64,000 nt of DNA from a virus (lineage: Duplodnaviria > Caudoviricetes): the IMG/VR virus record IMGVR_UViG_3300023435_000009. The stretch is one strand, 5' to 3'. A program made the translations under genes and the position numbers. The notes under the pieces were generated by a model. That model ran no database searches and was not told the DNA's origin. It saw only the letters and a list, made by a program, of their open reading frames with translations. This document shows positions 3,001 through 64,000 of the stretch, one piece after another (within the stretch, counting starts at the first letter, position 1; each line of letters opens with the position of its first letter).

Positions 3001-6000
3001 GTGTACGAAGCCCAGGGCGGGGAGCGTTCTTACGAGGCCAGTCAGAAAAACATCTATCGTCCACCCTTTTTCATCAAGGCGAACCAGAGCCGGTTTGGGC
3101 TCAGGACGGATAGGACAGCAGAGTTCGAACCGGGCCAGATGATTCGGATTGGTGAGGACTGCTTCTACATCCGCTCCCTGAAGTACTTTCCGCTCGAAAC
3201 CGATGGCAGCGGGGATGTGACCGAGGTCAACATCTTCCCCTCTACCATAAACGAGGTGGGCAGCAGGGCTCCTGGTAACGATCTGCTGAACTACATTACG
3301 GACAAGCCCCTCACGACGGTGGTGGACCCCGATGGGCCGACTCCTGTGCCCACAACGGCAGCCGCTGGGTTTATGTCAGCTATTGATCTGACACAGTTTC
3401 CTTTTGAGTCTGTGGTGCGAGGCCAGAAGGTTGTCATCTTCAGAGGTGACCTTACGGAGTTCGCTGTGCCGGGCCATGTTATCGAGATCGGGGGCGCACC
3501 CTACACCATCGGTAGTTCCGAGATCACGGAGGATGGGACACGCACGAAGATCACGGTGACGGGGAGCTTCCATCGGGCCTTCGACATACTGGCAGCCCCC
3601 ATCGTCAAAATCTCCTACCGTCCGGTGTACCCTCCGAACTTCATGGAGTTCGTGGGCGTGGGTCCGGTTCTGGACTCTGAGACGGTGGAACTTGTCCTGT
3701 TCGGGGAGACCCTGAGCAACGGTGAGGAGGCACCGGGGCGGACCCTGGTGCCTGACGTGGAGTACCATCTGGACTACACGTCAGGGGCTGTGCAGCTTCT
3801 GTGGCCTCCGCAAGCTGGTCTGCAGCCCAACCAGTGGCTCCTTCTGACCTTCACCAAGCTGCGGACCCTCCAACCCTATCTCAAGGATGAGGTGCTGGTG
3901 GAGCCTCGGTTCCAGGCGTCGTTCTTGTCCGTCACGACACCCAGCGAAGCGAATGACAGACTGGGTGCAACCCTCGCTGCGACGTTCACCTTTTCCAGCC
4001 CGGACTCATTCTACTTCCGAGCCGTGGAGTTGACCCAATTCCTCAGCGAGGCAGCCCAGGAGGCTATCCGGGACATCAACGCCACGTCTCCCGCTGGGGG
4101 TTCCATTCAGATCTCCGCCGGAGGGACCGACAACTGGCAGCAGGGGCGTTTTGGGTTGATGGGGGAGAAGGCACACCTCTCGGACCTGGATCGGGCAGCC
4201 AGGACGTTCCTGGGCTTCTACAATGACACTGTCGTGGCCTTCGAACAGATCCAGGAGACCATCTCGGGAGGTTTCGTCGGGGATCGGGATGGGAAGTTCC
4301 GGTTCTGGGTGGGCTACGGGAAGGACTACCCCACGCCTGGGTACGAGGACGCCATCTCAGGTGGTCTCCTGTCAAGGTTTGTGTGGGCGGACGCAGTAAA
4401 TTCTGAACGGGTGCTGGGCGCTCCAGCATTCCTGACCCTGGACGATTGGGTGGTGGCTCCTGACTCCGTCACGTTGGAGGATGCTGAGATCAGTGGTTCT
4501 TTCCTGGGTCCAAACACGCTGAATATAATGCAGACCATCCAGGGTGCATTGGTTCAGAATGATGTGGACGACGTCGTTCTCCTCAAGCTCGGAAAGACGC
4601 ACATTACAGGGACGGGGGCGGATCCCTATTACCACTTCAAGGCCAAGGGTGTCTTCGGGCGCATGTCCGATCAGCATCAGTTCTCCCGCATCTTCCCCAC
4701 CCGGACCAAGGCATTCTTCCGTCTGTACCCCGGCGCAGGGGCACAGATGGAGCCGGGAGCCTTCAACCCTGGCGTCTACACGGCAGGACGGGACATCAAC
4801 GGGGAATGGCTGAAGACCACGGGTGAGCAGATTGGCCAGATCAGTAATCCCGTGCTGGGGGACATCCAGGGTGTAGATTCCATCGATCTGGTCGAGAGAC
4901 GGGCGAGGGGTCGCATCTGGGGGTACTTTCCGGATGGGCTACCTGGTGGTCTTTTCGACGGGGGTGCTTCTCCTCCGGTCCCTGTTGCCTGCATCATCGT
5001 GACGCCGCTCCTTTTAAGGGACGTGCCCGTGGATCCTGAGACGGGCTACCCTGATGACACACGATTCCTCTCCACAGTGCCTCCTGGGGATCTGGGCGAC
5101 GCCGTTGCTGGTGACCCAGAACTGGCCGTGCCCGGTTTCGAGGCAGGAGATCAGTTGGGCTGGGGGAAGCCGGACGGAACAGAACTCGGTGCCTTCTGTC
5201 CCACAACTGTCCTGATGTGGGGTGCCACGGAACCCACGGGCCTCTTCGTCAGAGAAGTCCTATACGGGTGCGTGATTACCTTCCAGGACTACTTGGCCGC
5301 CCCGATGGCGCTCCCTGAGGAAGTCCTTGTGGTGGACACACCCGCCCACGAGTACCCCTTGGAGCGGGGCGACACACTGATGGTGGTTTCGCCCTCAGGG
5401 GTGGCGATGCAGGCTCCTCAGGTGCCAGACCTGACCACGGCTCCCACCTTCCAGACGTTCGCTGACAGTACGGTGCTGGCCGGACTGTATCGGGATGGCT
5501 ATGACTTGGGGACCAAGTCAGACGGACAAGTCATCGACAAGTCCCTCCCCTCCCTTCAGGACCACGCCTACATCCCGTTGAAGGAGTTGGCGGGACAGAA
5601 TGTGCCTGAGCCCACCTCCTCGGTGGAGGGTATTCTGGAGTTCCTTTACATGAACCAGAACCCACTCAAAGTTCCGGCTTTGCTTGGGGGTTGGGTGGAC
5701 GACTCGGGGGACTTCTCGGTCCCATACATCCGCACGGGCAACACAGAGATCGATCGCTTCGAGGACATCTCCGTTGTGGTGTCCGAGGCGATCTCAGCCA
5801 GGTCCGACACGGTGCCAACCGAGGCGGTGTACCCGGACGAAATCCTGAGCCTGAACGGCGTGGTGAACGTCGTTGGGGACACTCCTGCGTCCCTAGATGT
5901 GGATGCGGACCTGTTCCCCGTGGTGCCTGGTCCCATCGTTCCTGGGATCGGGAATGCCCGACCCTACGACCTGATCTTGGTTCAGGAACCAGCCTTGTTT

Positions 6001-16791: not shown

Positions 16792-19700
16792 TGGCGACAA
16801 CTCCCAAGTTCCTGGCCCCCGATGGGCAGTATCGGGAGAACTACGTTTTCACCACAGACGTCTCCTACCGCTTCTTCTCGGGGCAGATGGATGCGGACAC
16901 GGCGGACATGCAGGTTTCGCTTCGGGGCGGGGCCTTTTCGTCTAATCCTGATTACATCCAGTTCGAAGGTACGACCTTCACGATCCCGAATCCTTCAGCC
17001 TTCCCGGACGGACTCCAGCTTCTTCAGGGTGCCAACGTCATCGATGTCAAATCGGTATTGACGACGGGAGAGACGACAGCGGCGGGTGTCATTCGGGCGA
17101 ACCTGGCGGTTGACCGGGATGTGAAGGCTGAGGTGCTGGCTCCTTCCGGGATTTTCATCGAGCGTTTGGACCGCACAGTAAAGATCACGGTCACGGGTTT
17201 GGAGGACGAGGAGGTGACGGGGTACAACTTCTACGCCTCCGCCTTTCCCGGAGGCGGGATCACCGGGTACAAGAGGGTCAGCATCCAGCCTGTCATCTCC
17301 TATGACACAGAGGAGGTCTTGTCTCTTATCGGCATCCTAGACGTGGACATGGATGTGCCTCTGAACGATGATGGCACACCCCTAGCCAATCCTCTGCTTT
17401 TCCGCACCATGGGGATGCAGGTGAATCTTGCGGGCGACATCCTCCAGTCGGACTTTGACGAGAGTATTCGGATACCGGACAGCACGACCCATTTCCGCAC
17501 CTCTGTTGGGATAGACTCAGTTTCTCTCGTGAAGAAGTTCTCCTTCACACACAATCGAGCGGCACTGCCTACGGATGCGAAAAATCCAGCGGTTCCATAC
17601 AATGACTTCCAGGCCCTCCCCGATGAGGATCCCCTGTACTATGCGGTCACTGCCATCTACCTCATCGATGGTGTGGAGTACGAATCTCAGGTGTCCCAGG
17701 AGGTTGCGGGGGCACCTCTCATCGTGACCCCCCAGGTAGCGAACCTCCCGGCTGTTTCCCGGCAGCAGGTCGTGCGAGACACCACACTGGCGATCTTCCG
17801 GTCCCACCCCGAAGTGGACGTGAAGCCCGGCTCTTACCTCAGGGACACCTTCATCGACCCCTTCTCTACGGAGGCGGAACGTATCCGTTTCATCGTGGGG
17901 TTCCTCCAGGCGGGGCAGAGCTTCACCACGCTGCTGGCTATCGATGACCCCACTGGGTCGGGTACGTCGCTACCTGTGACACAGAGTCCGTACAAGATTG
18001 CCCTCAAGCAGGCGTTCTACCTGCAAGACACGGCATCGGTACAGAACCTGGTGGACAATGCTTTCGACCATCTGGCAGCCAGGCGAGGGGTTCAGCGGCG
18101 GGCTGGGTACCGTGCCCATGGTGAGGTGCTCTTCTATGTGACCAACCGACCGACCTCTACCCGCTTTATCCCGATTGGGACGATTGTGACGAGCGGTTCA
18201 GTGAGGTTCCGCACTACGTCCGCAGCCCGTATCTCACCCACAGGGACAGGGACGACCTACAGTCCTGCCACCGGACGCTGGACGACCCGAGCCTACGTCC
18301 AGGCGCTGGAGGCGGGGGAAGCAGGGAACCTGACGAGAGATCAGATCCGCACCGTTCAGAATGGCCCCACCGATGTACAGGTCACGAACCCGAACAACAC
18401 CTTCGGTGGTCGAAACACGGAGTCCAACTACGCCCTTGCGATTCGTGCAGACGGCGTATTGGCTTCGGTGGATTCGGGGACGTACAGGGGTCTCACTCAG
18501 GATGCCTCGGATGTGCCTGGGGTGCGTCAGGTGAACGTGGTAGAGGCAGGGCACACCCTCATGATGAGGGACTTGGATGTCACAACAGGCAGGCACTGGG
18601 GCGGCAAGGTGGATGTGTGGACCCGTGGAGACAGTAGTGCCACGCTCACCGACTCCTTTGCCTTCTCGTTCGAGTCGGTAATCGACGGACAGTTCGAGGC
18701 AGTGGGGGACATCGGAAACCTCAAGTTCCGGGCGATCAACTCCCGTGTGACCGAGGACTTCCCCATCATTGAGATGCTCAACATCCCTGACTGGGAGTTG
18801 GAGTTCAGGGACGAAACGAAGGGGACTGTGCTGGACCTGAGGGACGCTGAGATCATCCGACCGGATGGGTTGCAGCTTTCCGCCACCTACAATGATCCGA
18901 CGCTGTTGCACTATCTGGACGTGTTCCGAGGCTCCTACCGCTTCCGCACGAGTAACAAGTTCGTGTTCAGCCGTCAGCCCGTGGGCGAGATCAACTCCTT
19001 CTACAAGCTGCTGGCCTCGGGTGACAAGAGCGTCGTCAGCACCTCGGCATACAAGCTATTCCATCCAGGCGACCCAATGGTGCTGGGACGGTCCACAGAG
19101 GCTGGGGACTACATCCAGGTGGTGGAGCCTCTGGACGGGACACCTCCTGTGAACATTCCCTCCGGTGACCCCATCGTGATCACGGGGGAGAGTCACGTAC
19201 TCCTCTCCGGGCCTGAGTATCTGGAGAACCTCGGGATTAACCCATACACGGTCCACGTCTACAACTTTGACCGTTCCATCGAGTACAACGGTCCCTTCCA
19301 CTCTTCCTCAGTCAAGGATTACACCCTGGTAGAGGAGGTGGATGAGACTCCCGTTGCCTTTGTCCCGGTTACGGGCGGGCGGTTGTTGGAAGGGATGCAA
19401 GTCATCGTTGACTATCAGCACGACGAAAACTACTCGGTGGAGTACATGATCAACGCCGTGGTTCAGGCCGTGCAGAACGCAGTGGACCTGAGCAGGCACG
19501 CCACCGCTGACGTGGTGTCCAAGGAGTCCATCCCGGCGGGTGTGAATATTTCCGGGACGGTTGTCATCCTCAGGAACCAGCAGTCCTCGGTGGTGGACGG
19601 CAACATCCGCACAGAGTTGGGTCGAGTGTTCGGGGCAATGACCCTGGCCCAGCCTCTCCGTCAGAGCGACGTCATCAGTGCAATCGAAACGGTGCAGGGA

Positions 19701-56023: not shown

Positions 56024-56440
56024 ATGAGCAATCGAGCACAAGCCTTGGCGAAGAAATACCTAACCGCTGAGACCACACGGCAGGCGGGTTACGGTGTGGC
56101 CCCCAAGGTCTACGCCATGGTCGACGCCCACACCCTGGTTCTGTGGACGAGTTTCGCCAGTTTCGGGCGAGCACACCACCTCATTTCGCAGCTTAATTGG
56201 TGGGACAGTGCGTTGTACAAGGTGGGGCGTGCAGCACGGCTCATCTTGGAGGACAACAGCATACCCAGCAAGTTCGGTCGCGAAGTGTTTTTCGAGCCGG
56301 ACAAGCACCAGCCCCGAGAGATGCAGGCGTACGTCAGGCTGCGCCCCCAGACGGGAAGCTGGGATAGGGATCAGATTGACTTGATCAAGTCCGTTGTCCA
56401 TCACCCTTCGGTAGCAGATGGCCTGAGGGATATGTTCTGA
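56024..56440 (+). CDS. Hypothetical protein (138 aa)
   Basis: Coupled ORF with GAGG SD. Confidence 0.7.
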   Translation: MSNRAQALAKKYLTAETTRQAGYGVAPKVYAMVDAHTLVLWTSFASFGRAHHLISQLNWWDSALYKVGRAARLILEDNSIPSKFGREVFFEPDKHQPREMQAYVRLRPQTGSWDRDQIDLIKSVVHHPSVADGLRDMF

Positions 56441-56793
56441 TGCCCTTCATCTGCAGAGACAAGATCAACCCCGCTGTGCGTAAACCCTATGAGGGAGCGT
56501 ACAAGGGACAGCTTCGGCAGGCTCTGACCAATCCCGGTCTCACTGCCGAACAACGAGAACGCATCAAGGATCAACTGGCCGAGGTGGGACAACCGAAGGT
56601 TTACCGGGTGGACACGCCTCCAAAGCCCGGTGCCATCTCATTCGAAGAACCCCTCCCTCCCAGGAAAATCCTTGAGACGTTGAAGAGGGTCGATTTGCTG
56701 GTCATCGCTCGTAAGCTGCAGATCCCGACGAACGGGACGAAGGCTGCGATCATTGAACGGTTGATATTGGCCACACACAATGGAGCTTCATGA
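56440..56793 (+). CDS. Small protein with C-terminal SAP/Rho-N-like helix-extension-helix domain (117 aa)
   Basis: LKRVDLLVIARKLQIPTNGTKAAIIERL matches the SAP/Rho_N pattern; TGATG coupling. Confidence 0.65.
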   Translation: MPFICRDKINPAVRKPYEGAYKGQLRQALTNPGLTAEQRERIKDQLAEVGQPKVYRVDTPPKPGAISFEEPLPPRKILETLKRVDLLVIARKLQIPTNGTKAAIIERLILATHNGAS

Positions 56794-56844
56794 AAGGCGA
56801 ACAAAACCGAACATGCGGCTTCGAGGCTAAGGAGGAGTGTTAAG

Positions 56845-57060
56845 GTGAACCACCAGAATAAAAATGGTGGAACTGAAGGTGAGACTCCTATGTTCTCCGG
56901 GTTGTCTTTAAGGACAGCTACCCTGAGATTGGTCCAGTCTCAGGCTCTAGCAGTATCGAAGGACGAAACAAGACCTGAAATGGTTGGTAACATCTTCGAT
57001 ACAACCAGAGGCCCGGAAACTTTGCCGAGGACAACAATTTCCCTTCGGGAGGTGTCTTAA
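56845..57060 (+). ncRNA. IscB omegaRNA scaffold, copy 1 (putative guide immediately 5', 56823-56844)
   Basis: Directly upstream of iscB. Stems CCACC/GGTGG, GTTGTC/GACAGC, CTGAGATTG/CAGTCTCAG, a CTTCGG tetraloop and ACTTTGCCGAGG. 214/216 identical to 63341-63556. Confidence 0.85.
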
Positions 57061-58251
57061 ATGACACAGAAAATCTTTGTGATTGACGCTGACGGGAAGC
57101 AGCTACTTCCCACTCACCCAGCACGCTCTAGAAAATTGTTGCGAGCTGGTCGTGCCCAGGTACACCAAGTGGTGCCGTTTACGATTCAATTGAGCCGTGT
57201 TGTTGAGAATCCTGTTGGAGCCTTCACTGTTGGTATCGATGATGGAGCGAAACACGTTGGTATTGCAGTTGTAAACAGGCATCAGAAAGAAGTTGTTTTC
57301 CGAGGCACAATTCGTTTGAGACAAGACGTTTCGAGGAAAATGACACAACGGGCAGCGTATCGACGAACGAGGAGAAGTCGGTTACGCTTTCGGGCACCGA
57401 GATTCAGGAACAGGGGTAGAAGGGGCTTTCTGCCCCCAACGATCCGACAGAAGAAAGAATCCATTTTGAGAGTGCTTGTCGATCTCAAAAAGAGGTTGAA
57501 CATCATCGAGGCTACGATTGAAGAAGGTCAGTTTGACACAAGTAGTTTGGTTGCAGGACGAAAATTGACAGGGGCAGAATTTCAGAAATCTGAATACAGT
57601 AAGGGGGGTTTTCGAGCTAAGGTGCTGTGGCGAGACAAATACAAGTGTCAACATTGTGGTACCTCTGATCGCCTTCAAGCCCACCACATTCAGTTTAAGA
57701 GTCGAGGTGGTGGGGATTCCCCTCAAAATGGGCTTACTCTTTGTGGGACATGTCATGCGGATCTTCATGAAGGATTGTGGGTGCTGACAAAGAAGCCTCG
57801 TCCTTTTAGGTATCCTGCTCATCTACAAGCAGGTAAGAATTACCTGAGGGAGCTTCTTCATGGGATTGGCTTAAGAATCGAGGTTTGTTTCGGGTGGATG
57901 ACTGCCAAGTGGCGGAAATGTCTTGAGTTGGAGAAAGCACATGACTTAGATGCCGTTGCTATGGTTTGTCGGGGCTGCAAGCCCTACTTGTGTCTAAGGT
58001 CTTTTTTGGTTATCCCGAAGAGAACGAAGGTATGGGAAAACAATCCCACGAAAAAGCGTTTTGAGTTTCGGGGTTTTAGACATTGGGATTTGGTGAAGGC
58101 TCGTCATCGTACTCGTGGTGTAGTTGTTGGGTCCATAAGGAGTCTAAAGAAGACTACCCTTACTTTACGAACGAATTGGGACAGTAACTTTCCTGTTTCG
58201 TATAACAAATCCCAAGTTTTGTGGCGCTTTGGGGGTCTTGTTTATGTCTGA
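57061..58251 (+). CDS. iscB: IscB RNA-guided endonuclease (PLMP, split RuvC, RRXRR bridge helix, HNH)
   Basis: QLLPTHPARSRKLL (PLMP-like), GIDDGAKHVGIAV (RuvC-I), RRTRR, IEEGQFD (RuvC-II), CQHC...AHHI...NGLTLCGTCH (HNH), AHDLDA (RuvC-III). Confidence 0.95.
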   Translation: MTQKIFVIDADGKQLLPTHPARSRKLLRAGRAQVHQVVPFTIQLSRVVENPVGAFTVGIDDGAKHVGIAVVNRHQKEVVFRGTIRLRQDVSRKMTQRAAYRRTRRSRLRFRAPRFRNRGRRGFLPPTIRQKKESILRVLVDLKKRLNIIEATIEEGQFDTSSLVAGRKLTGAEFQKSEYSKGGFRAKVLWRDKYKCQHCGTSDRLQAHHIQFKSRGGGDSPQNGLTLCGTCHADLHEGLWVLTKKPRPFRYPAHLQAGKNYLRELLHGIGLRIEVCFGWMTAKWRKCLELEKAHDLDAVAMVCRGCKPYLCLRSFLVIPKRTKVWENNPTKKRFEFRGFRHWDLVKARHRTRGVVVGSIRSLKKTTLTLRTNWDSNFPVSYNKSQVLWRFGGLVYV

Positions 58252-58268
58252 CAGTGTTGAGCACTGTC
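58250..58268 (+). other. Perfect 7-bp hairpin at the iscB 3' end (candidate IS200/IS605-type subterminal end structure)
   Basis: GACAGTG-TTGAG-CACTGTC overlaps the iscB stop codon. Confidence 0.5.
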
Positions 58269-58286
58269 TTTGAAGGAGGATAGAAA

Positions 58287-59012
58287 ATGAGCAACGTTCG
58301 GAAACTGGCGCTTTTTGCTCTCATCTGTTTTGGCTCCATGGTACTCATGGGTCAGGCACCTTCCGTTGAGGAACTTCCGGTTCCGGCGGCGGAGATTGCA
58401 GAGAATGCGCCCGCAACTCCGGCGGAAGCTGCCCATGAGGTTGCTCCTGTCGATGTCCCCGTGATTGAGGAGGCTCCTATTGCAGAGGAGGCTCCGGTTT
58501 TGGTGGTGGTCGAGGAAACCCCTGAGGCTGCTCAGGTAGCCGAGGAGGAAGCATCCGCAGAGGAGACCCCGGAGGAAGCCCCCGTAATGGCGGAGGAAAC
58601 CTCTGAGATCGTCCTTGTGGCTGAAGAGGAAGCACCCGCAGCAGAAGAGAAGGAAGCATCGGCGGAGATCGTCGTACCTCCCGAGACCGATGCGGAAGCG
58701 GGGGAAGCTATCGGGACGGCAATTGATTTGGCAGCGCACGGTGCTTGGACGGCATTTATCGGCTTCATCCTGATGCTGGTCGTCTGGTTTCTGCGGCGGA
58801 TCAAGATTCTGGCGAAGATCCCGAAGAAGGCTGTCCCGTGGGTGACTGTTATATTGGGGTGCCTGACAGCGGTCGGACTGGTATTGGCTGGTGGCCAGTC
58901 CTGGGTCGTGGCTCTCACGCAGGGTATTGGAGGCGGCTTGGCTGCTCCGGCAATGTGGGAGTTGGGTTTCAAACACTTGTCTGCGGGGGCCTCTAAGGTC
59001 GAGTCGGCCTGA
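58287..59012 (+). CDS. Membrane protein: signal peptide, acidic Glu/Ala/Pro stalk, holin-like C-terminal TM bundle (241 aa)
   Basis: SD AAGGAGG; hydrophobic N-terminus; EEAP-type repeats; three hydrophobic segments ending in GGGLAAPAMWELGFK. Confidence 0.6.
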   Translation: MSNVRKLALFALICFGSMVLMGQAPSVEELPVPAAEIAENAPATPAEAAHEVAPVDVPVIEEAPIAEEAPVLVVVEETPEAAQVAEEEASAEETPEEAPVMAEETSEIVLVAEEEAPAAEEKEASAEIVVPPETDAEAGEAIGTAIDLAAHGAWTAFIGFILMLVVWFLRRIKILAKIPKKAVPWVTVILGCLTAVGLVLAGGQSWVVALTQGIGGGLAAPAMWELGFKHLSAGASKVESA

Positions 59013-59062
59013 CGGAACTACAGGGACGAACCTGGAGGCGGGTAAGTCCTTTTCCTTGATAT

Positions 59063-59107
59063 GCTACGGGGTGGTCGCGCTCGATACGGGAGTGGCCACC
59101 CCGTAGC
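59063..59107. terminator. Long GC-rich hairpin at the convergence of plus- and minus-strand genes; likely terminator
   Basis: GCTACGGGGTGGTCGC...GTGGCCACCCCGTAGC forms a 16-bp stem (with G-U pairs), followed by a T-rich tract on the plus strand. Confidence 0.6.
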
Positions 59108-60071
59108 TCTCTTTAATTATCTTTAGCACAATGTCTTTGTAGATGGCAGACACCTCCCAGTACCGCTGTGTTCGTTCCCAAGCCCGATGGCGATAGGGAA
59201 CCTGGAGTTTGAGCTGGGCAATGAAGGAGTCGTTGTAAGGTGTCACTATTCGCAATTTCCCATCCGTTCCCTCGGTTACGAAGACCGGATCCCATGCCAG
59301 GATGACCTTGAGCAGATTCATTTCCAACTGAACGGGTAGGCGGGGTTTCGGGTCAGCGGGTTTGGTTTTGTGCCGGAACTTCATGAGGTCGGACCAGCGG
59401 CGGTAGGGGACTTCGTAGAGGCCCTTCGTTCCGCACACCAGGGACCGGGGCATATTGACACCCAGGACACACAGGAAGTGCTCCTCCTCGGATTTGGGTA
59501 CCCACCAGCCGACTTTGTGGCCCCGCTTGATCCGGGTCTTGGTGACGTTCCCGATCAGACCGATTTCCTCATCGATCAGGTGTTTGGCTCCCTCGATGAA
59601 ACTCATATCCCTGCGGATTTTGCCCTTGTCCGAGATGAACGCTTCGAGATGGTCCCCTTTGTCTAGGATCATCGCCTCGGTACGATCCACCTCCAGCTTG
59701 TCTGCCAGTTCCGTGTACCCGAGGGACCGGATCAGGGCGCAGCACTTGAAGACCTCGTCCCGGTCGGCGTAGTGGGCTGACGCCCAGTAGACCAGGAGGT
59801 TGCTGGCTTTGCGGGCGTTGGTGTGATCGTTGTTCACCAGGGTCAGGAAGGCATCGATGAGGTGGTCCGGCAGGTTGGACACGGCGAGCAGGCCGAGAGT
59901 GTCCATCACCTGTGCCTCGGTCGGAACGTGAACGGGGTCGTAGTATCTGCGACTACACACGGGTCCGATGCCCCGTTCTACCGATTCAGCGTCGGTCAGG
60001 TGGGCACGGCACACGCAGCAGTGTGAAGCCGTGACCTGTGCGAGAACGTGGTGGGAAAGGGTGGAGTCCAT
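59064..60071 (-). CDS. DUF6011-like Zn-finger protein with C-terminal HARP-like domain (335 aa)
   Basis: CCVCRAHLTDAESVERGIGPVC; C-terminal TPYNDSFIAQLK...RAWERTQRYWEV. SD AGGAGGT precedes ATG 60071. Confidence 0.7.
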   Translation of the reverse strand: MDSTLSHHVLAQVTASHCCVCRAHLTDAESVERGIGPVCSRRYYDPVHVPTEAQVMDTLGLLAVSNLPDHLIDAFLTLVNNDHTNARKASNLLVYWASAHYADRDEVFKCCALIRSLGYTELADKLEVDRTEAMILDKGDHLEAFISDKGKIRRDMSFIEGAKHLIDEEIGLIGNVTKTRIKRGHKVGWWVPKSEEEHFLCVLGVNMPRSLVCGTKGLYEVPYRRWSDLMKFRHKTKPADPKPRLPVQLEMNLLKVILAWDPVFVTEGTDGKLRIVTPYNDSFIAQLKLQVPYRHRAWERTQRYWEVSAIYKDIVLKIIKESYGVATPVSSATTP

Positions 60072-60081
60072 CTCAGACCTC

Positions 60082-60420
60082 CTAAAAGCTGTAGTCGAAG
60101 AACCGGCTCCGGTACCCAATGTAGAAGAGCTGGGTGCCGCCGACCTGTCGCCAGTCGCCGTTCTTGCGGCGACTCAGAGTGACCTTGCGGCCCTCATGAT
60201 TCGGCTCGTAGTCGTAGTCCTGGCAGTCGGACATCCCGTTGTCGTCAGTGCGGATGGATCGGTCGGCCTGCACCACGCAGCGCCTGCCATTCGGACTGAC
60301 CTCGACCACTGTGTAGGGCTCACGGTCGGACCCTATGATCATGGTGGCCCCCATTCCGATCTTGGGGTTTGGGTTGTTTCCCCGGTACATACTGTGGACG
60401 TTGGCGGTGTCGATGCTCAT
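60082..60420 (-). CDS. Phage hypothetical protein (112 aa)
   Basis: SD AAGGAG; GMGATMIIGSDREPYTVVEV pattern of small phage accessory proteins. Confidence 0.75.
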   Translation of the reverse strand: MSIDTANVHSMYRGNNPNPKIGMGATMIIGSDREPYTVVEVSPNGRRCVVQADRSIRTDDNGMSDCQDYDYEPNHEGRKVTLSRRKNGDWRQVGGTQLFYIGYRSRFFDYSF

Positions 60421-60446
60421 TGGGTGCTCCTTGATCAGGGTCCTTT

Positions 60447-60566
60447 CCCCTCACATTAGCTACTCTGAGGGTCGGTCAGATGATCCCACGCTGGCGCTCT
60501 CTTTTAAGGATGGTAGGATCATTGTGGGATCATCGTCGCCGGGACCAGAGTAGACAGTGTGAGGGG
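60447..60566. promoter_or_regulatory. Back-to-back copies of a 43-bp motif between divergent genes (putative twin promoters)
   Basis: GTGGGATCATC-N11-CAGAGTAG-N4-TGTGAGGGG occurs on + (60524-60566) and on - (60489-60447) with identical spacing but unrelated spacer bases. Confidence 0.7.
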
Positions 60567-60588
60567 CAAATGACCCCGTAGGAGAAAC

Positions 60589-61218
60589 GTGATGGCCAAG
60601 TTGACGTTGCAGGAAGCGGAGCAGATCGCAGGGCGGGGACGCCCGTGGACAATCCGCCTGGAGTTTGTCGGGGCAAATCTGGCCAACGCCAGCGGCGTAT
60701 CCTCCAAGTACTGGTTCGCCACGGGGCGGGGCATCAACGAGGCGGTCGAGATCGGGTACGGGGCCATCGGCTCTTCCCCGCAGTACCGGCTCATCGACTG
60801 GGACAAGTTGCGGCAGCGGGTGGCGGACAAGACTTCCGAGGGGTACGTTTACGCCCATACCCCCTATGTACGGATGAGCGCAGTCAACTTCGCCAAGGTC
60901 ACGGGGAACCCGGTAGCAACGTTCCCGACCGCCAAGGCGGTGAGTTCGGCTCCGACCTCGGTACTCACCCAGCCCCCGGTGGCTCCCGCTCCGGTGACAC
61001 CACCGCCCGCCCCTGTGGTGGCTCCCAGGGTGTTCAGCACGGCACAGCAGGCCCTGGGTGCTCCATACAGCCTGATCGCAACAATGAAGATCCTGCGACA
61101 GGGTCTGACCATCACGGGATACTCGGCTCGGGATGCGAGTGATGACGAGCTGATGGTGCTCGACCCCACGGACGCCGTGGACTTCGCTCGGGACTATGAC
61201 ATCGACATCGTTTTCTAG
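60589..61218 (+). CDS. WGR-like domain protein with Pro/Ala/Val linker (209 aa)
   Basis: SSKYWFATG...VEIGYGAIG resembles the WGR pattern, with GRIG replaced by GAIG; SD GGAG. Confidence 0.6.
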   Translation: MMAKLTLQEAEQIAGRGRPWTIRLEFVGANLANASGVSSKYWFATGRGINEAVEIGYGAIGSSPQYRLIDWDKLRQRVADKTSEGYVYAHTPYVRMSAVNFAKVTGNPVATFPTAKAVSSAPTSVLTQPPVAPAPVTPPPAPVVAPRVFSTAQQALGAPYSLIATMKILRQGLTITGYSARDASDDELMVLDPTDAVDFARDYDIDIVF

Positions 61219-61227
61219 GAGGGAGCA

Positions 61228-62136
61228 ATGAGACACATCATCGGGTTGCTGGTGGCTTTGGCGGTAGGGTTGACAGGTTGCGGAACCGGCTTTGACATCG
61301 AGGATCCTACCATGTGGGTAGAAGGCGACGAGTACCAAGGAGGTGGTGAGGACACCATCACTAGGGAGGACGTCCCGATTGAGGATGTGGAACCTGGGGA
61401 GGACACCTTCCTGCCGGGAGAGGATACGGTGTTTGACAGGGTCTCTGACGAAACTGGAGATGCTGATTTGCAGGATGCCGAGACCGGGGATGACACCGAA
61501 GATCTGGACGTAGAGAGTTCTGACACGCCGGTCGGGGAGGACACGGATTTCGACATCTTTGATGCGGATACGACGGAACCTGAAAAACCCCTTATTCGAG
61601 TGACCTTCAAGACGGTGGGGTCATTCGGTGGGCTTACGATGGCTCTGAAATACCCCGGACCCATATCAGCGTTTGCATGTAACCACGAGACATCCATCTG
61701 GTTTTTCAACCCGCTTGCTACTGGTTGTTTTGTGGCGTCAGATGCTGAATCTCTGTGTTACAACCTTGCTGACGAACTCATTCCTGAGATCACATCAATG
61801 ACAGATGAGGACGGGGCGTGGATCGTGACGTTGGATATTTCCAAGGTGGTACCTCCTCCGCCACCACCACAGGGTTATGGTTTCGCCTACGTTCTAATGG
61901 TGTTTTTAACATACGAGGCCGGTGTCTCCCAGACGACCGAGATCACAGTGGAGGTTCCCGATGTCCCATTCGGTATGGATAAGCAAACGACGACTTTGGA
62001 TCAGAGCTATATGTCTGGGGTACGTTATGCCCTTCAAGTGATCGTTGACAACGACACGGGCTACCCCAAAATAATTAGTAATAATAACGGGGGTCTCGGT
62101 GGTACGTATTGTGAGAACGTGTCGGAGGGGGAGTAG
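61228..62136 (+). CDS. Lipoprotein with acidic low-complexity linker (302 aa)
   Basis: Signal peptide II with lipobox LTGC; Asp/Glu/Thr-rich EDT repeats; SD GGAGGGAG. Confidence 0.75.
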   Translation: MRHIIGLLVALAVGLTGCGTGFDIEDPTMWVEGDEYQGGGEDTITREDVPIEDVEPGEDTFLPGEDTVFDRVSDETGDADLQDAETGDDTEDLDVESSDTPVGEDTDFDIFDADTTEPEKPLIRVTFKTVGSFGGLTMALKYPGPISAFACNHETSIWFFNPLATGCFVASDAESLCYNLADELIPEITSMTDEDGAWIVTLDISKVVPPPPPPQGYGFAYVLMVFLTYEAGVSQTTEITVEVPDVPFGMDKQTTTLDQSYMSGVRYALQVIVDNDTGYPKIISNNNGGLGGTYCENVSEGE

Positions 62137-62139
62137 TTG

Positions 62140-62790
62140 ATGGCATTCACACTGATCTACCGTAGGAAGGGCAAGGGCAAACGGCCAGCGCCCGCCGAGG
62201 GTGACCCTACAAACATCAGGGTAGGGGATTCCATCTCCTATTGGGATCCGGTGTCCGCCTTTTCCGCTGGGACAGTCGAAAAGATCAACACGCTGGCTGG
62301 GGTACTTCGTATCGGTGCTCTGATGTACGGGGACGTGATACTTCGCCCTCCCCGAAGGCTCTCCTTCTCGGAAATCATCAAGGCGGAACGACCCAGCAAC
62401 ATCCCGGTACCTGTGGACAGCCCCACGGACGCCGACGTGGCCGAAATCAACGCCACCCCCACTCCCATGCTGCTCTCGGACGAAAACGCCTCTGAGGCAT
62501 CCCCTACCCCTACAGAGACCCCTGCAGAGCCTGTCCCGGAGATCCTCCCCGAGGAAGGTACTCCCGCCGAAGTTGCACCCCCGAAACCCAAGCCGAAGAA
62601 GCGAGACCCCAAGGTGATCGCTGTGGGCACCGTTATCGAGAGGCGCTACGGGGGAAGCATGATCAAGGTGCTGGTGAAGGAAGAGGGTTTCGAGTGTAGG
62701 GGGGTGACCTATCCGAACCTGGATAAGGTAGCGGAGTCCCTCACGGGCACCAGCACCAACGGACGATCGTTCTTCGGTGTAAAAGGCTAG
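62140..62790 (+). CDS. Protein with C-terminal DUF2924-like domain (216 aa)
   Basis: IERRYGG...VLVKEEGFECRGVTYPNLDKVAESLTGTSTNGRSFFGV matches the DUF2924 pattern. Confidence 0.65.
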   Translation: MAFTLIYRRKGKGKRPAPAEGDPTNIRVGDSISYWDPVSAFSAGTVEKINTLAGVLRIGALMYGDVILRPPRRLSFSEIIKAERPSNIPVPVDSPTDADVAEINATPTPMLLSDENASEASPTPTETPAEPVPEILPEEGTPAEVAPPKPKPKKRDPKVIAVGTVIERRYGGSMIKVLVKEEGFECRGVTYPNLDKVAESLTGTSTNGRSFFGVKG

Positions 62791-62904
62791 ATCCTGTACC
62801 TCTGAAAGCCCCCTTTGATCACAGCGATCTGTCAGTTTAACAACGTCTCAACTCAGGTTTTCCATAGCTTCTCTATTGCCCGCCCCTTGTAAGGGGGTTC
62901 CCCC

Positions 62905-63339
62905 ATGAAGATGGCTATCCTGTTCCATGAGGGGTGTGTGATCGACAAACGCCTTATTGAAAGGCTACTCCGACGAGTGGTCCGTAAAGACCCCCCCAAG
63001 GTACTCCTCACGGACGCCAAAATGCCGGAATCCTCCTGTGTGCGGAGTTGTGGCAAACGGCTTGGGCTGGAGGTATGGGACTCTGAGGAGCTTAGAGGAG
63101 AACCCACTTTCGGGGGGCGGATCCGAGATTGGATTTGGGGTAGAGTCTCCAGCAGGCAATTGCTGATTCAGTCTTGTGACGTTGCGGTGGTGTTTTGGGA
63201 TGGGTCGATCAGCGTGAAAAGCCTGGTCTTGGAGATCCTTGCGGCAGACCGAAAGGTCATCCGTGTGAACGGCCTCGGTCACCTTTCCGGCCAAACAGCC
63301 GGTGCAATGATCGAGGTTGAGGCTAAGGAGGAGTGTTAA
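62905..63339 (+). CDS. Degenerate SLOG/YspA-like protein (144 aa); its last 6 codons and stop are the flank shared by both IscB loci
   Basis: CDVAVVFWDG...VIRV resembles SLOG C-termini; it ends EAKEEC* encoded by GAGGCTAAGGAGGAGTGTTAA. Confidence 0.5.
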   Translation: MKMAILFHEGCVIDKRLIERLLRRVVRKDPPKVLLTDAKMPESSCVRSCGKRLGLEVWDSEELRGEPTFGGRIRDWIWGRVSSRQLLIQSCDVAVVFWDGSISVKSLVLEILAADRKVIRVNGLGHLSGQTAGAMIEVEAKEEC

Positions 63340-63340
63340 G

Positions 63341-63556
63341 GTGAACCACCAGAATAAAAATGGTGGAACTAAGGGTGAGACTCCTATGTTCTCCGGGTTG
63401 TCTTTAAGGACAGCTACCCTGAGATTGGTCCAGTCTCAGGCTCTAGCAGTATCGAAGGACGAAACAAGACCTGAAATGGTTGGTAACATCTTCGATACAA
63501 CCAGAGGCCCGGAAACTTTGCCGAGGACAACAATTTCCCTTCGGGAGGTGTCTTAA
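63341..63556 (+). ncRNA. IscB omegaRNA scaffold, copy 2 (putative guide 63319-63340)
   Basis: Differs from copy 1 at two positions only (CTGAAGGT vs CTAAGGGT). Confidence 0.85.
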
Positions 63557-64000
63557 ATGACACAGAAAATCTTTGTGATTGACGCTGACGGGAAGCAGTT
63601 ACTCCCCACTCACCCAGCACGCTCTAGAAAACTACTACGAGCTGGTCGTGCCCAGGTACATCAAGTGGTGCCCTTTACGATCCAACTGGTCCGTGTTGTT
63701 GAGAATCCGGTTGGAGCCTTCACTGTTGGTATCGATGATGGAGCGAAACACGTTGGCATAGCGATGGTAAACGAGCACACCAAGGAAGTAGTCTTCAGGG
63801 GTACTGTTCGGTTACGTCAGGATGTTAAGCGAAAAATGACACAACGGGCAGCGTATCGACGAACAAGAAGAAATCGGAAGCTCCGACATCGCCCAGCCAA
63901 GTTTTTGAACCGAGGAAGGAAGGGTTTCCTGCCCCCAACTATTCGACAGAAGAAGGATAGCATACTTCGGGTAGTTAAGGACTTAGGAAAAGTTCTCTGC
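63557..64000 (+). CDS. iscB: IscB copy 2 (3'-truncated by the window edge; absent from the ORF track)
   Basis: My translation: MTQKIFVIDADGKQLLPTHPARSRKLLRAGRA...GIDDGAKHVGIAMVNEHTKEVVFRG...RRTRRNRKLRHRPAKFLNRG..., open to the window end. Confidence 0.92.
   Translation, partial: MTQKIFVIDADGKQLLPTHPARSRKLLRAGRAQVHQVVPFTIQLVRVVENPVGAFTVGIDDGAKHVGIAMVNEHTKEVVFRGTVRLRQDVKRKMTQRAAYRRTRRNRKLRHRPAKFLNRGRKGFLPPTIRQKKDSILRVVKDLGKVLC

Follow-up and report, generated by a model that had tools for sequence, protein, structure and literature searches.

Two IscB elements of a ~528-kb phage share an omegaRNA scaffold segment, with different predicted guides further upstream

We analyzed a 64,000-nucleotide (nt) stretch of DNA from a virus of the class Caudoviricetes (IMG/VR record IMGVR_UViG_3300023435_000009), hereafter called the window, in which two IscB nuclease genes and the omegaRNA segments preceding them (copies A and B) share an identical 22-nt sequence (22-mer). 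The window is part of a 109-kb virus record with an estimated completeness of 21%. Both loci are best explained as ordinary IscB-omegaRNA elements, with a rough probability of 0.88. Under this explanation, the 22-mer is an internal part of the RNA scaffold, the guides lie upstream of an adaptor hairpin and differ between the copies, and the likeness of the front halves arose by recombination. Relatives were gathered from bacterial genomes, metagenomes, and phage contigs, and their loci are given here by L numbers. The coordinates of the features are collected in Table 1.

The 22-mer belongs to the omegaRNA scaffold

Exact copies of the 22-mer occur twice in the window (56823-56844 and 63319-63340; shuffles expect none), and a search of IMG/VR returned no exact match besides the window's own record. 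Pairwise alignment of the two loci bore out what a preliminary description of this DNA had reported: identity starts precisely at the 22-mer, with unrelated sequence 5' of it. Over the following 216 nt there are two differences (GAA versus AAG near 56876-56878, thus 214/216 identical), and the first 14 codons of the two iscB open reading frames (ORFs) are the same before a growing divergence that includes a one-residue indel. In both copies an 11-bp hairpin ends exactly at the 22-mer, even though the upstream sequences are unrelated.

The Rfam family HEARO (RF02033), which models the IscB omegaRNA, aligned with positions 56818-57040 over the full model length (37.9 bits, E 3e-6), and the relatives L003, L004, L015, and L017 matched it too. 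This match emerged only in E-value mode, the Rfam scan at the gathering threshold giving no match. The alignment places 56825-56829 in the multiloop-closing stem and 56830-56834 in a hairpin stem. In the solved OgeuIscB RNA, the guide is followed by a guide-adaptor hairpin (43 nt) and then by a 5-bp nexus stem (PMC9640706). From this order, the HEARO closing stem equals the nexus stem, and the adaptor hairpin is represented by HEARO positions 1-52. Among 23 distinct relatives (distinct sequence combinations), three positions of the 22-mer covary with their partners, in both the nexus stem and the neighboring helix. Nexus position 2 (56826:57025) is G-C in six relatives, U-A in eight, A-U in six, and C-G in one. 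In the internal hairpin, position 3 is G-C (11), C-G (7), or U-A (3), and position 4 is A-U (8), G-C (4), U-A (3), or C-G (2). A different register of this hairpin proposed by the minimum free energy (MFE) fold, with AGGAGU (56833-56838), was dropped for the HEARO register at 56830-56834, the only one that covaries (L006, L007).

The preliminary description had proposed looking for the 22-mer in relatives, and bacteria and other phages indeed have homologs of it at sites that are not related to each other. In one relative, whose IscB is 78% identical and lies at an unrelated site, 18 of the 22 positions are kept, and loci from Chloroflexota, Bacillota, and others carry GAGNCUNAGGNGG...UAAG at the same position. 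The pairing, the covariation, and the presence in relatives together indicate that the 22-mer is a conserved, base-paired segment inside the omegaRNA scaffold and not a guide.

The same description had favored a guide common to both omegaRNAs, fixed by selection or homogenization, with two nucleases directed at one target containing a Shine-Dalgarno (SD) sequence. Such a guide would account for an identical 22-mer beneath unrelated upstream sequence, and the 216 nt from the end of the 22-mer to the ATG come near published scaffold lengths. We nevertheless consider it highly improbable, since the homologs at unrelated sites in several phyla have covarying partners within the scaffold, a guide-adaptor hairpin stands between the 22-mer and the flank, and the empty site described below puts the 22-mer 41 nt inside element A. 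This removes the appealing but mistaken idea of two nucleases with one guide.

A 71-codon open frame also runs over the omegaRNA in both copies (56845-57060 and 63341-63556) and ends on iscB as TAA-ATG, the TAAATG being conserved family-wide. The frame itself is not conserved: 60 codons or more are open in 11 of 62 relatives, and a control frame reaches this length in 14 of the 62.

Guide, ends, and empty site of element A

Directly 5' of the 22-mer of copy A lies the predicted guide-adaptor hairpin, as in solved IscB RNAs. Its pattern, GGAGCUYC...GGCUYY, is kept with compensatory or wobble changes in a third copy of the same phage (copy C, L004), in L003, in L027, and in bacterial loci, where the hairpin measures 64-68 nt. 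Copies within one genome begin to resemble each other exactly at GGAGC (L022/L023, L008/L010).

From its two junctions, the empty site of element A was predicted as ...CACACAAT|GGAGGATAG (AAT|GGAGGATAG), with an upstream gene ending in GGA GGA TAG, and homologs of this gene without the element have 116 amino acids (aa) and end in HNGG. The site was then found verbatim in L128, a contig of a sibling phage, where it runs uninterrupted to the ATG of the next gene. Element A accordingly spans 56782-58274, the edges being ambiguous within a shared GGAG, and L128 thus sets the left edge at 56782 and the start of the 22-mer 41 nt inside the element. The empty AAT|GGAGG compares with a filled AAT|GGAGC...GAA|GGAGG, that is, a fixed motif with hairpins at the ends and neither target duplication nor inverted repeats, as in the IS200/IS605 type. 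Right-end hairpins equivalent to that of A are present in B, C, and L027.

Immediately upstream of the adaptor hairpin, the 16 nt at 56766-56781 match the empty allele in L128 at 16 of 16 positions, followed by GGAGGA, and the flanks in this position differ among A, B, C, L003, and L027. Judging from these flanks, the guide is a stretch of about 16 nt upstream of the adaptor hairpin, different in each copy and ending some 41-48 nt upstream of the 22-mer. In this IscB clade the rule would be that the guide starts 5' of the adaptor hairpin, not 5' of the GAGGCUAAGG box. As a fallback, the preliminary description had allowed that the 22 nt were an unrecognized part of the element end. This was essentially correct, but the adaptor hairpin, which it had missed, takes the scaffold 41-48 nt further upstream.

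On its upstream side element A directly borders the last codons of the preceding gene, and on its downstream side the GGAGG that serves the next gene as Shine-Dalgarno. The guide of A and this GGAGG, the presumed target-adjacent motif (TAM), spell the uninterrupted site of the sibling phage. Because they match the empty site, element A could cut empty alleles and then be copied into them, which would amount to homing. That guide and adjacent motif of copy A equal the empty allele supports RNA-guided homing between phages.

Table 1. Positions of the features of the IscB loci (window coordinates unless a locus is given).
Feature	Position	Strand	Description	Basis
Upstream SAP-domain gene	56440..56793	+	Element A supplies the final three codons and the stop (GGA GCT TCA TGA)	Pfam SAP
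Predicted guide A (ATTGGCCACACACAAT)	56766..56781	+	16 nt directly 5' of the adaptor hairpin	OgeuIscB architecture (PMC9640706); empty-allele match
Guide-adaptor hairpin, left end of element A	56782..56822	+	Arms 56782-56792 (GGAGCUUCAUG) and 56812-56822 (CAUGCGGCUUC)	MFE fold
Full omegaRNA scaffold, copy A	56782..57060	+	279 nt	HEARO match; fold z-score -3.9
22-mer, copy A	56823..56844	+	GA linker; nexus-stem 5' strand 56825-56829; internal-hairpin 5' arm 56830-56834; conserved GUGUUAAG loop segment	HEARO alignment; covariation
A-B recombination module	56823..57260	+	96-99% identity; breakpoint near 57255-57265	
Internal-hairpin 3' arm CUCCU	56885..56889	+	Partner of 56830-56834 (AGGAG)	HEARO alignment; covariation
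Nexus-stem 3' strand UUGCC	57022..57026	+	Partner of 56825-56829 (GGCUA)	HEARO alignment; covariation
iscB-A	57061..58251	+	396 aa; catalytic residues conserved	Pfam RRXRR and HNH
Right-end hairpin of element A	58250..58268	+	GACAGUG / CACUGUC; overlaps the iscB-A stop codon	Sequence
GGAGG just outside element A	58275..58279	+	Shine-Dalgarno of the next gene (ATG 58287); presumed TAM	Present in empty allele (L128:494-503)
Upstream gene of copy B	62905..63339	+	Last ~22 codons and stop (TAA within the 22-mer) supplied by the insert	
Candidate guide B	63255..63270	+	16 nt, if the hairpin serves as adaptor	
Left 8-bp direct repeat GTGTGAAC flanking insert B	63263..63270	+		Filled versus empty site
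Left end of insert B	63271..63318	+	23-nt terminal inverted repeat, also forming the 5' arm of the 11-bp hairpin (63271-63281 / 63308-63318); guide-adaptor position	
22-mer and omegaRNA core, copy B	63319..63556	+		Alignment; fold
iscB-B	63557..64000	+	Cut by the window end; full gene of 403 aa at L029:4653-5864	
Copy C	L004:3001-4263		420 aa; ~32 kb away on the 528,260-bp contig	

A Shine-Dalgarno core as presumed TAM

In most relatives the right end is followed by GGAGG, with the next start codon 5-10 nt later (right ends L006-L023 and L047-L126), and independent insertions lose similarity directly after GGAGG. It is likely, from these insertion sites, that GGAGG, the core of the Shine-Dalgarno sequence, is both TAM and insertion motif, mirrored by the GGAGC of the left end. 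Our literature search found no IscB paper tying a TAM to the Shine-Dalgarno sequence. L079 and copy B have the GGAGG motif but no start codon close to it.

The front half of copy A is a recombinant module

We compared nucleotide identity in five segments, namely the omegaRNA core and ORF nt 1-60, 61-210, 211-600, and 601 to the end. Between A and B it falls from 99 to 96, 93, 65, and 60%, while A and L003 are 86, 62, 75, 71, and 74% identical in the same segments; B, C, and L027 are alike at 79-96% throughout the ORF. A triplet test of A against B and L003 gave a maximum chi-square of 87.7 (permutation p ≤ 0.0005) with the breakpoint near ORF nt 195-205, and the informative sites were divided 78:8 to its left and 108:210 to its right. 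The segment identities and the triplet test thus show A to be a recombinant: the B/C lineage contributed the omegaRNA and the initial ~66 codons, and an L003-like lineage the remainder.

The near identity of the A and B omegaRNA cores and first ~66 codons therefore reflects recombination between IscB lineages in one genome, together with purifying selection on the RNA. The preliminary description had suggested a recent homogenization of guide and scaffold. In the form of this mosaic, that suggestion is right for the scaffold and the initial ~66 codons, but not for any guide.

L027:1740-2000 (also L048 and L049) has a B-like IscB (94% over the N-terminus) behind a different type of omegaRNA, which at 52% identity is effectively unalignable and shares the last ~40 nt alone. 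This arrangement, the converse of A, suggests a modular swapping of guide-RNA and protein modules. Such exchange of omegaRNA and N-terminus and the presumed Shine-Dalgarno-core TAM may offer testable leads for the mining of IscB enzymes.

Three IscB copies in one phage

The window letters are part of a 528,260-bp metagenome contig, without mismatch over 1,865 nt at copy A and 1,096 nt at copy B. Listed sequencing runs with matching sequence comprised 20 of salt-lake DNA and none of RNA. The 528,260-bp contig carries three intact IscB copies, of 396 (A), 403 (B), and 420 aa (C), and the two omegaRNA-associated (OMEGA) elements A and B lie between co-oriented genes of this ~528-kb phage. The frame of IscB-C extends 24 codons beyond the usual end and overlaps the start of the next gene. 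The RRXRR domain (PF14239, E 2.6e-45) and the HNH domain (PF01844) were recognized by Pfam, and the best full-length match in the PDB was HfmIscB (9k2z, E 7.5e-54). RuvC and HNH catalytic residues are kept in A, B, C, and the relatives, with D60/D61, E154, H208/H209, and H294/D297 invariant. By their domains and residues, iscB-A and iscB-B are assigned to IscB.

With its position at the end of the virus record, copy B could have been an assembly artefact, a collapsed or misjoined repeat, as the preliminary description had itself considered. The short contigs L031, L032, and L036 would agree with this, connecting the upstream flank of B to the A gene through a 225-nt identical stretch. On the other hand, the B ORF is distinct (protein 83% identical to that of A over 147 aa), separate empty sites are known for A and for B, and not only the 528-kb contig but at least eight contigs from different salt-lake samples show the full A-then-B order with different flanks. 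As the arrangement recurs in different samples, an artefact is hardly credible.

Contigs L031, L032, and L036, from other samples, have the upstream flank and the diagnostic bases of B and then the gene and the downstream gene of A, the switch falling within the 225 identical nt. Such contigs could be chimeras of the assembly, or else real recombinants or circles.

Copy B has unusual ends

Copy B has no GGAGC hairpin 5' of the 22-mer but an unrelated 11-bp hairpin ending exactly at the junction. Hairpins as strong as this one occur at 0.15% of window positions, and the global fold of omegaRNA B equals that of A. The empty site of B was found in a sibling phage (L046), where the upstream gene encodes 126 aa versus 144 aa with the insert, and by comparison with it, insert B extends from 63271 to L029:5919. 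Its termini (63263-63318 and L029:5870-5927, flanking repeats included) are end-anchored inverted repeats matching at 18 of 23 positions, and the 8-bp direct repeat GTGTGAAC that flanks it is single in the empty site, so that ends of the IS200/IS605 type are lacking here. The target flank of B is itself partly palindromic (GACC GAAA GGTC), which complicates the reading of the ends. All 126 loci, the virus record of the window, and IMG/VR were searched for the hairpin arms, the right flank, and the inverted repeat, and these turned up only at copy B. The 10-mer CCTCGGTCAC recurs at two more places on the minus strand (near 3217 and near 18747), with no further similarity, and these copies were taken as chance.

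One possible, still tentative interpretation is that omegaRNA-B is defective, having lost its adaptor hairpin and left end. The upstream hairpin would then be the end of another mobile unit, and IscB-B would be guide-less or would borrow the omegaRNA of A or C in trans. This agrees with the lack of the GGAGC...GGCUUC hairpin conserved in most relatives examined, with the fact that the hairpin arm belongs to the terminal inverted repeat, and with the 95-99% identity of the A, B, and C cores, which makes use in trans plausible. The 11 contiguous pairs ending exactly at the nexus junction (background 0.0015), the same global fold as A, and the retention of all catalytic residues in iscB-B speak against it.

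It is rather unlikely, though conceivable, that copy B represents an IscB-omegaRNA core deprived of its IS200/IS605 left end, and that this core travelled as cargo in a unit bounded by 23-nt inverted repeats, producing an 8-bp target duplication. Paired with an internal complement, the left repeat would have re-created an adaptor hairpin that abuts the nexus stem. Targeting in which the flank is the guide would then have been preserved under a different mobilization, not driven by TnpA.

Comparison with known systems

Copies A, B, and C belong to the known IscB-omegaRNA kind. They resemble the IS200/IS605-type systems OgeuIscB (7XHT/7UTN), GstIscB, and HfmIscB (9K2Z) in having a PLMP/RRXRR, RuvC, and HNH protein and an upstream RNA of ~240-280 nt with the order guide, adaptor hairpin, 5-bp nexus stem, and central stems, the guide being the flank. 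Like IS200/IS605-type elements, they lie co-oriented behind a gene, copy A has no target duplication, and its guide and adjacent motif restore the empty site. They differ in residing on a ~528-kb phage with no TnpA seen (109-kb record), in a presumed TAM that is the Shine-Dalgarno core GGAGG, in the non-canonical ends of copy B, and in an extra hairpin between the nexus and the central stems. The helix order is that of HEARO, whose 5' domain corresponds to the adaptor hairpin and whose multiloop-closing stem corresponds to the nexus stem, but scores here are 38-46 bits versus a gathering score of 83, and at 41 nt the adaptor hairpin of the phage is the shorter one. As with phage homing endonuclease genes, presence is polymorphic between sibling phages and the predicted nuclease specificity fits the empty allele; unlike theirs, the specificity would be encoded in RNA. 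The phage offers a natural case of one megaphage with three intact IscB elements, and a related assembly contains a sibling phage that still has the empty sites of A and B.

Several points weigh against the explanation of both loci as ordinary IscB-omegaRNA elements. The HEARO score of 37.9 bits lies below the Rfam gathering score of 83, and the presumed TAM is derived from insertion sites only. The 109-kb virus record contains no Y1 TnpA (PF01797), leaving TnpA-driven mobility unproven. The ends of copy B are non-canonical, with inverted-repeat termini and an 8-bp duplication in place of a GGAGC left end. Finally, an additional, more recent homogenization of the A and B omegaRNAs is weakly supported by 2 differences versus about 6.6 expected.

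Downstream of copy B (L029:7340-8435), a large SNF2 helicase gene has intein and LAGLIDADG matches and represents another selfish element.

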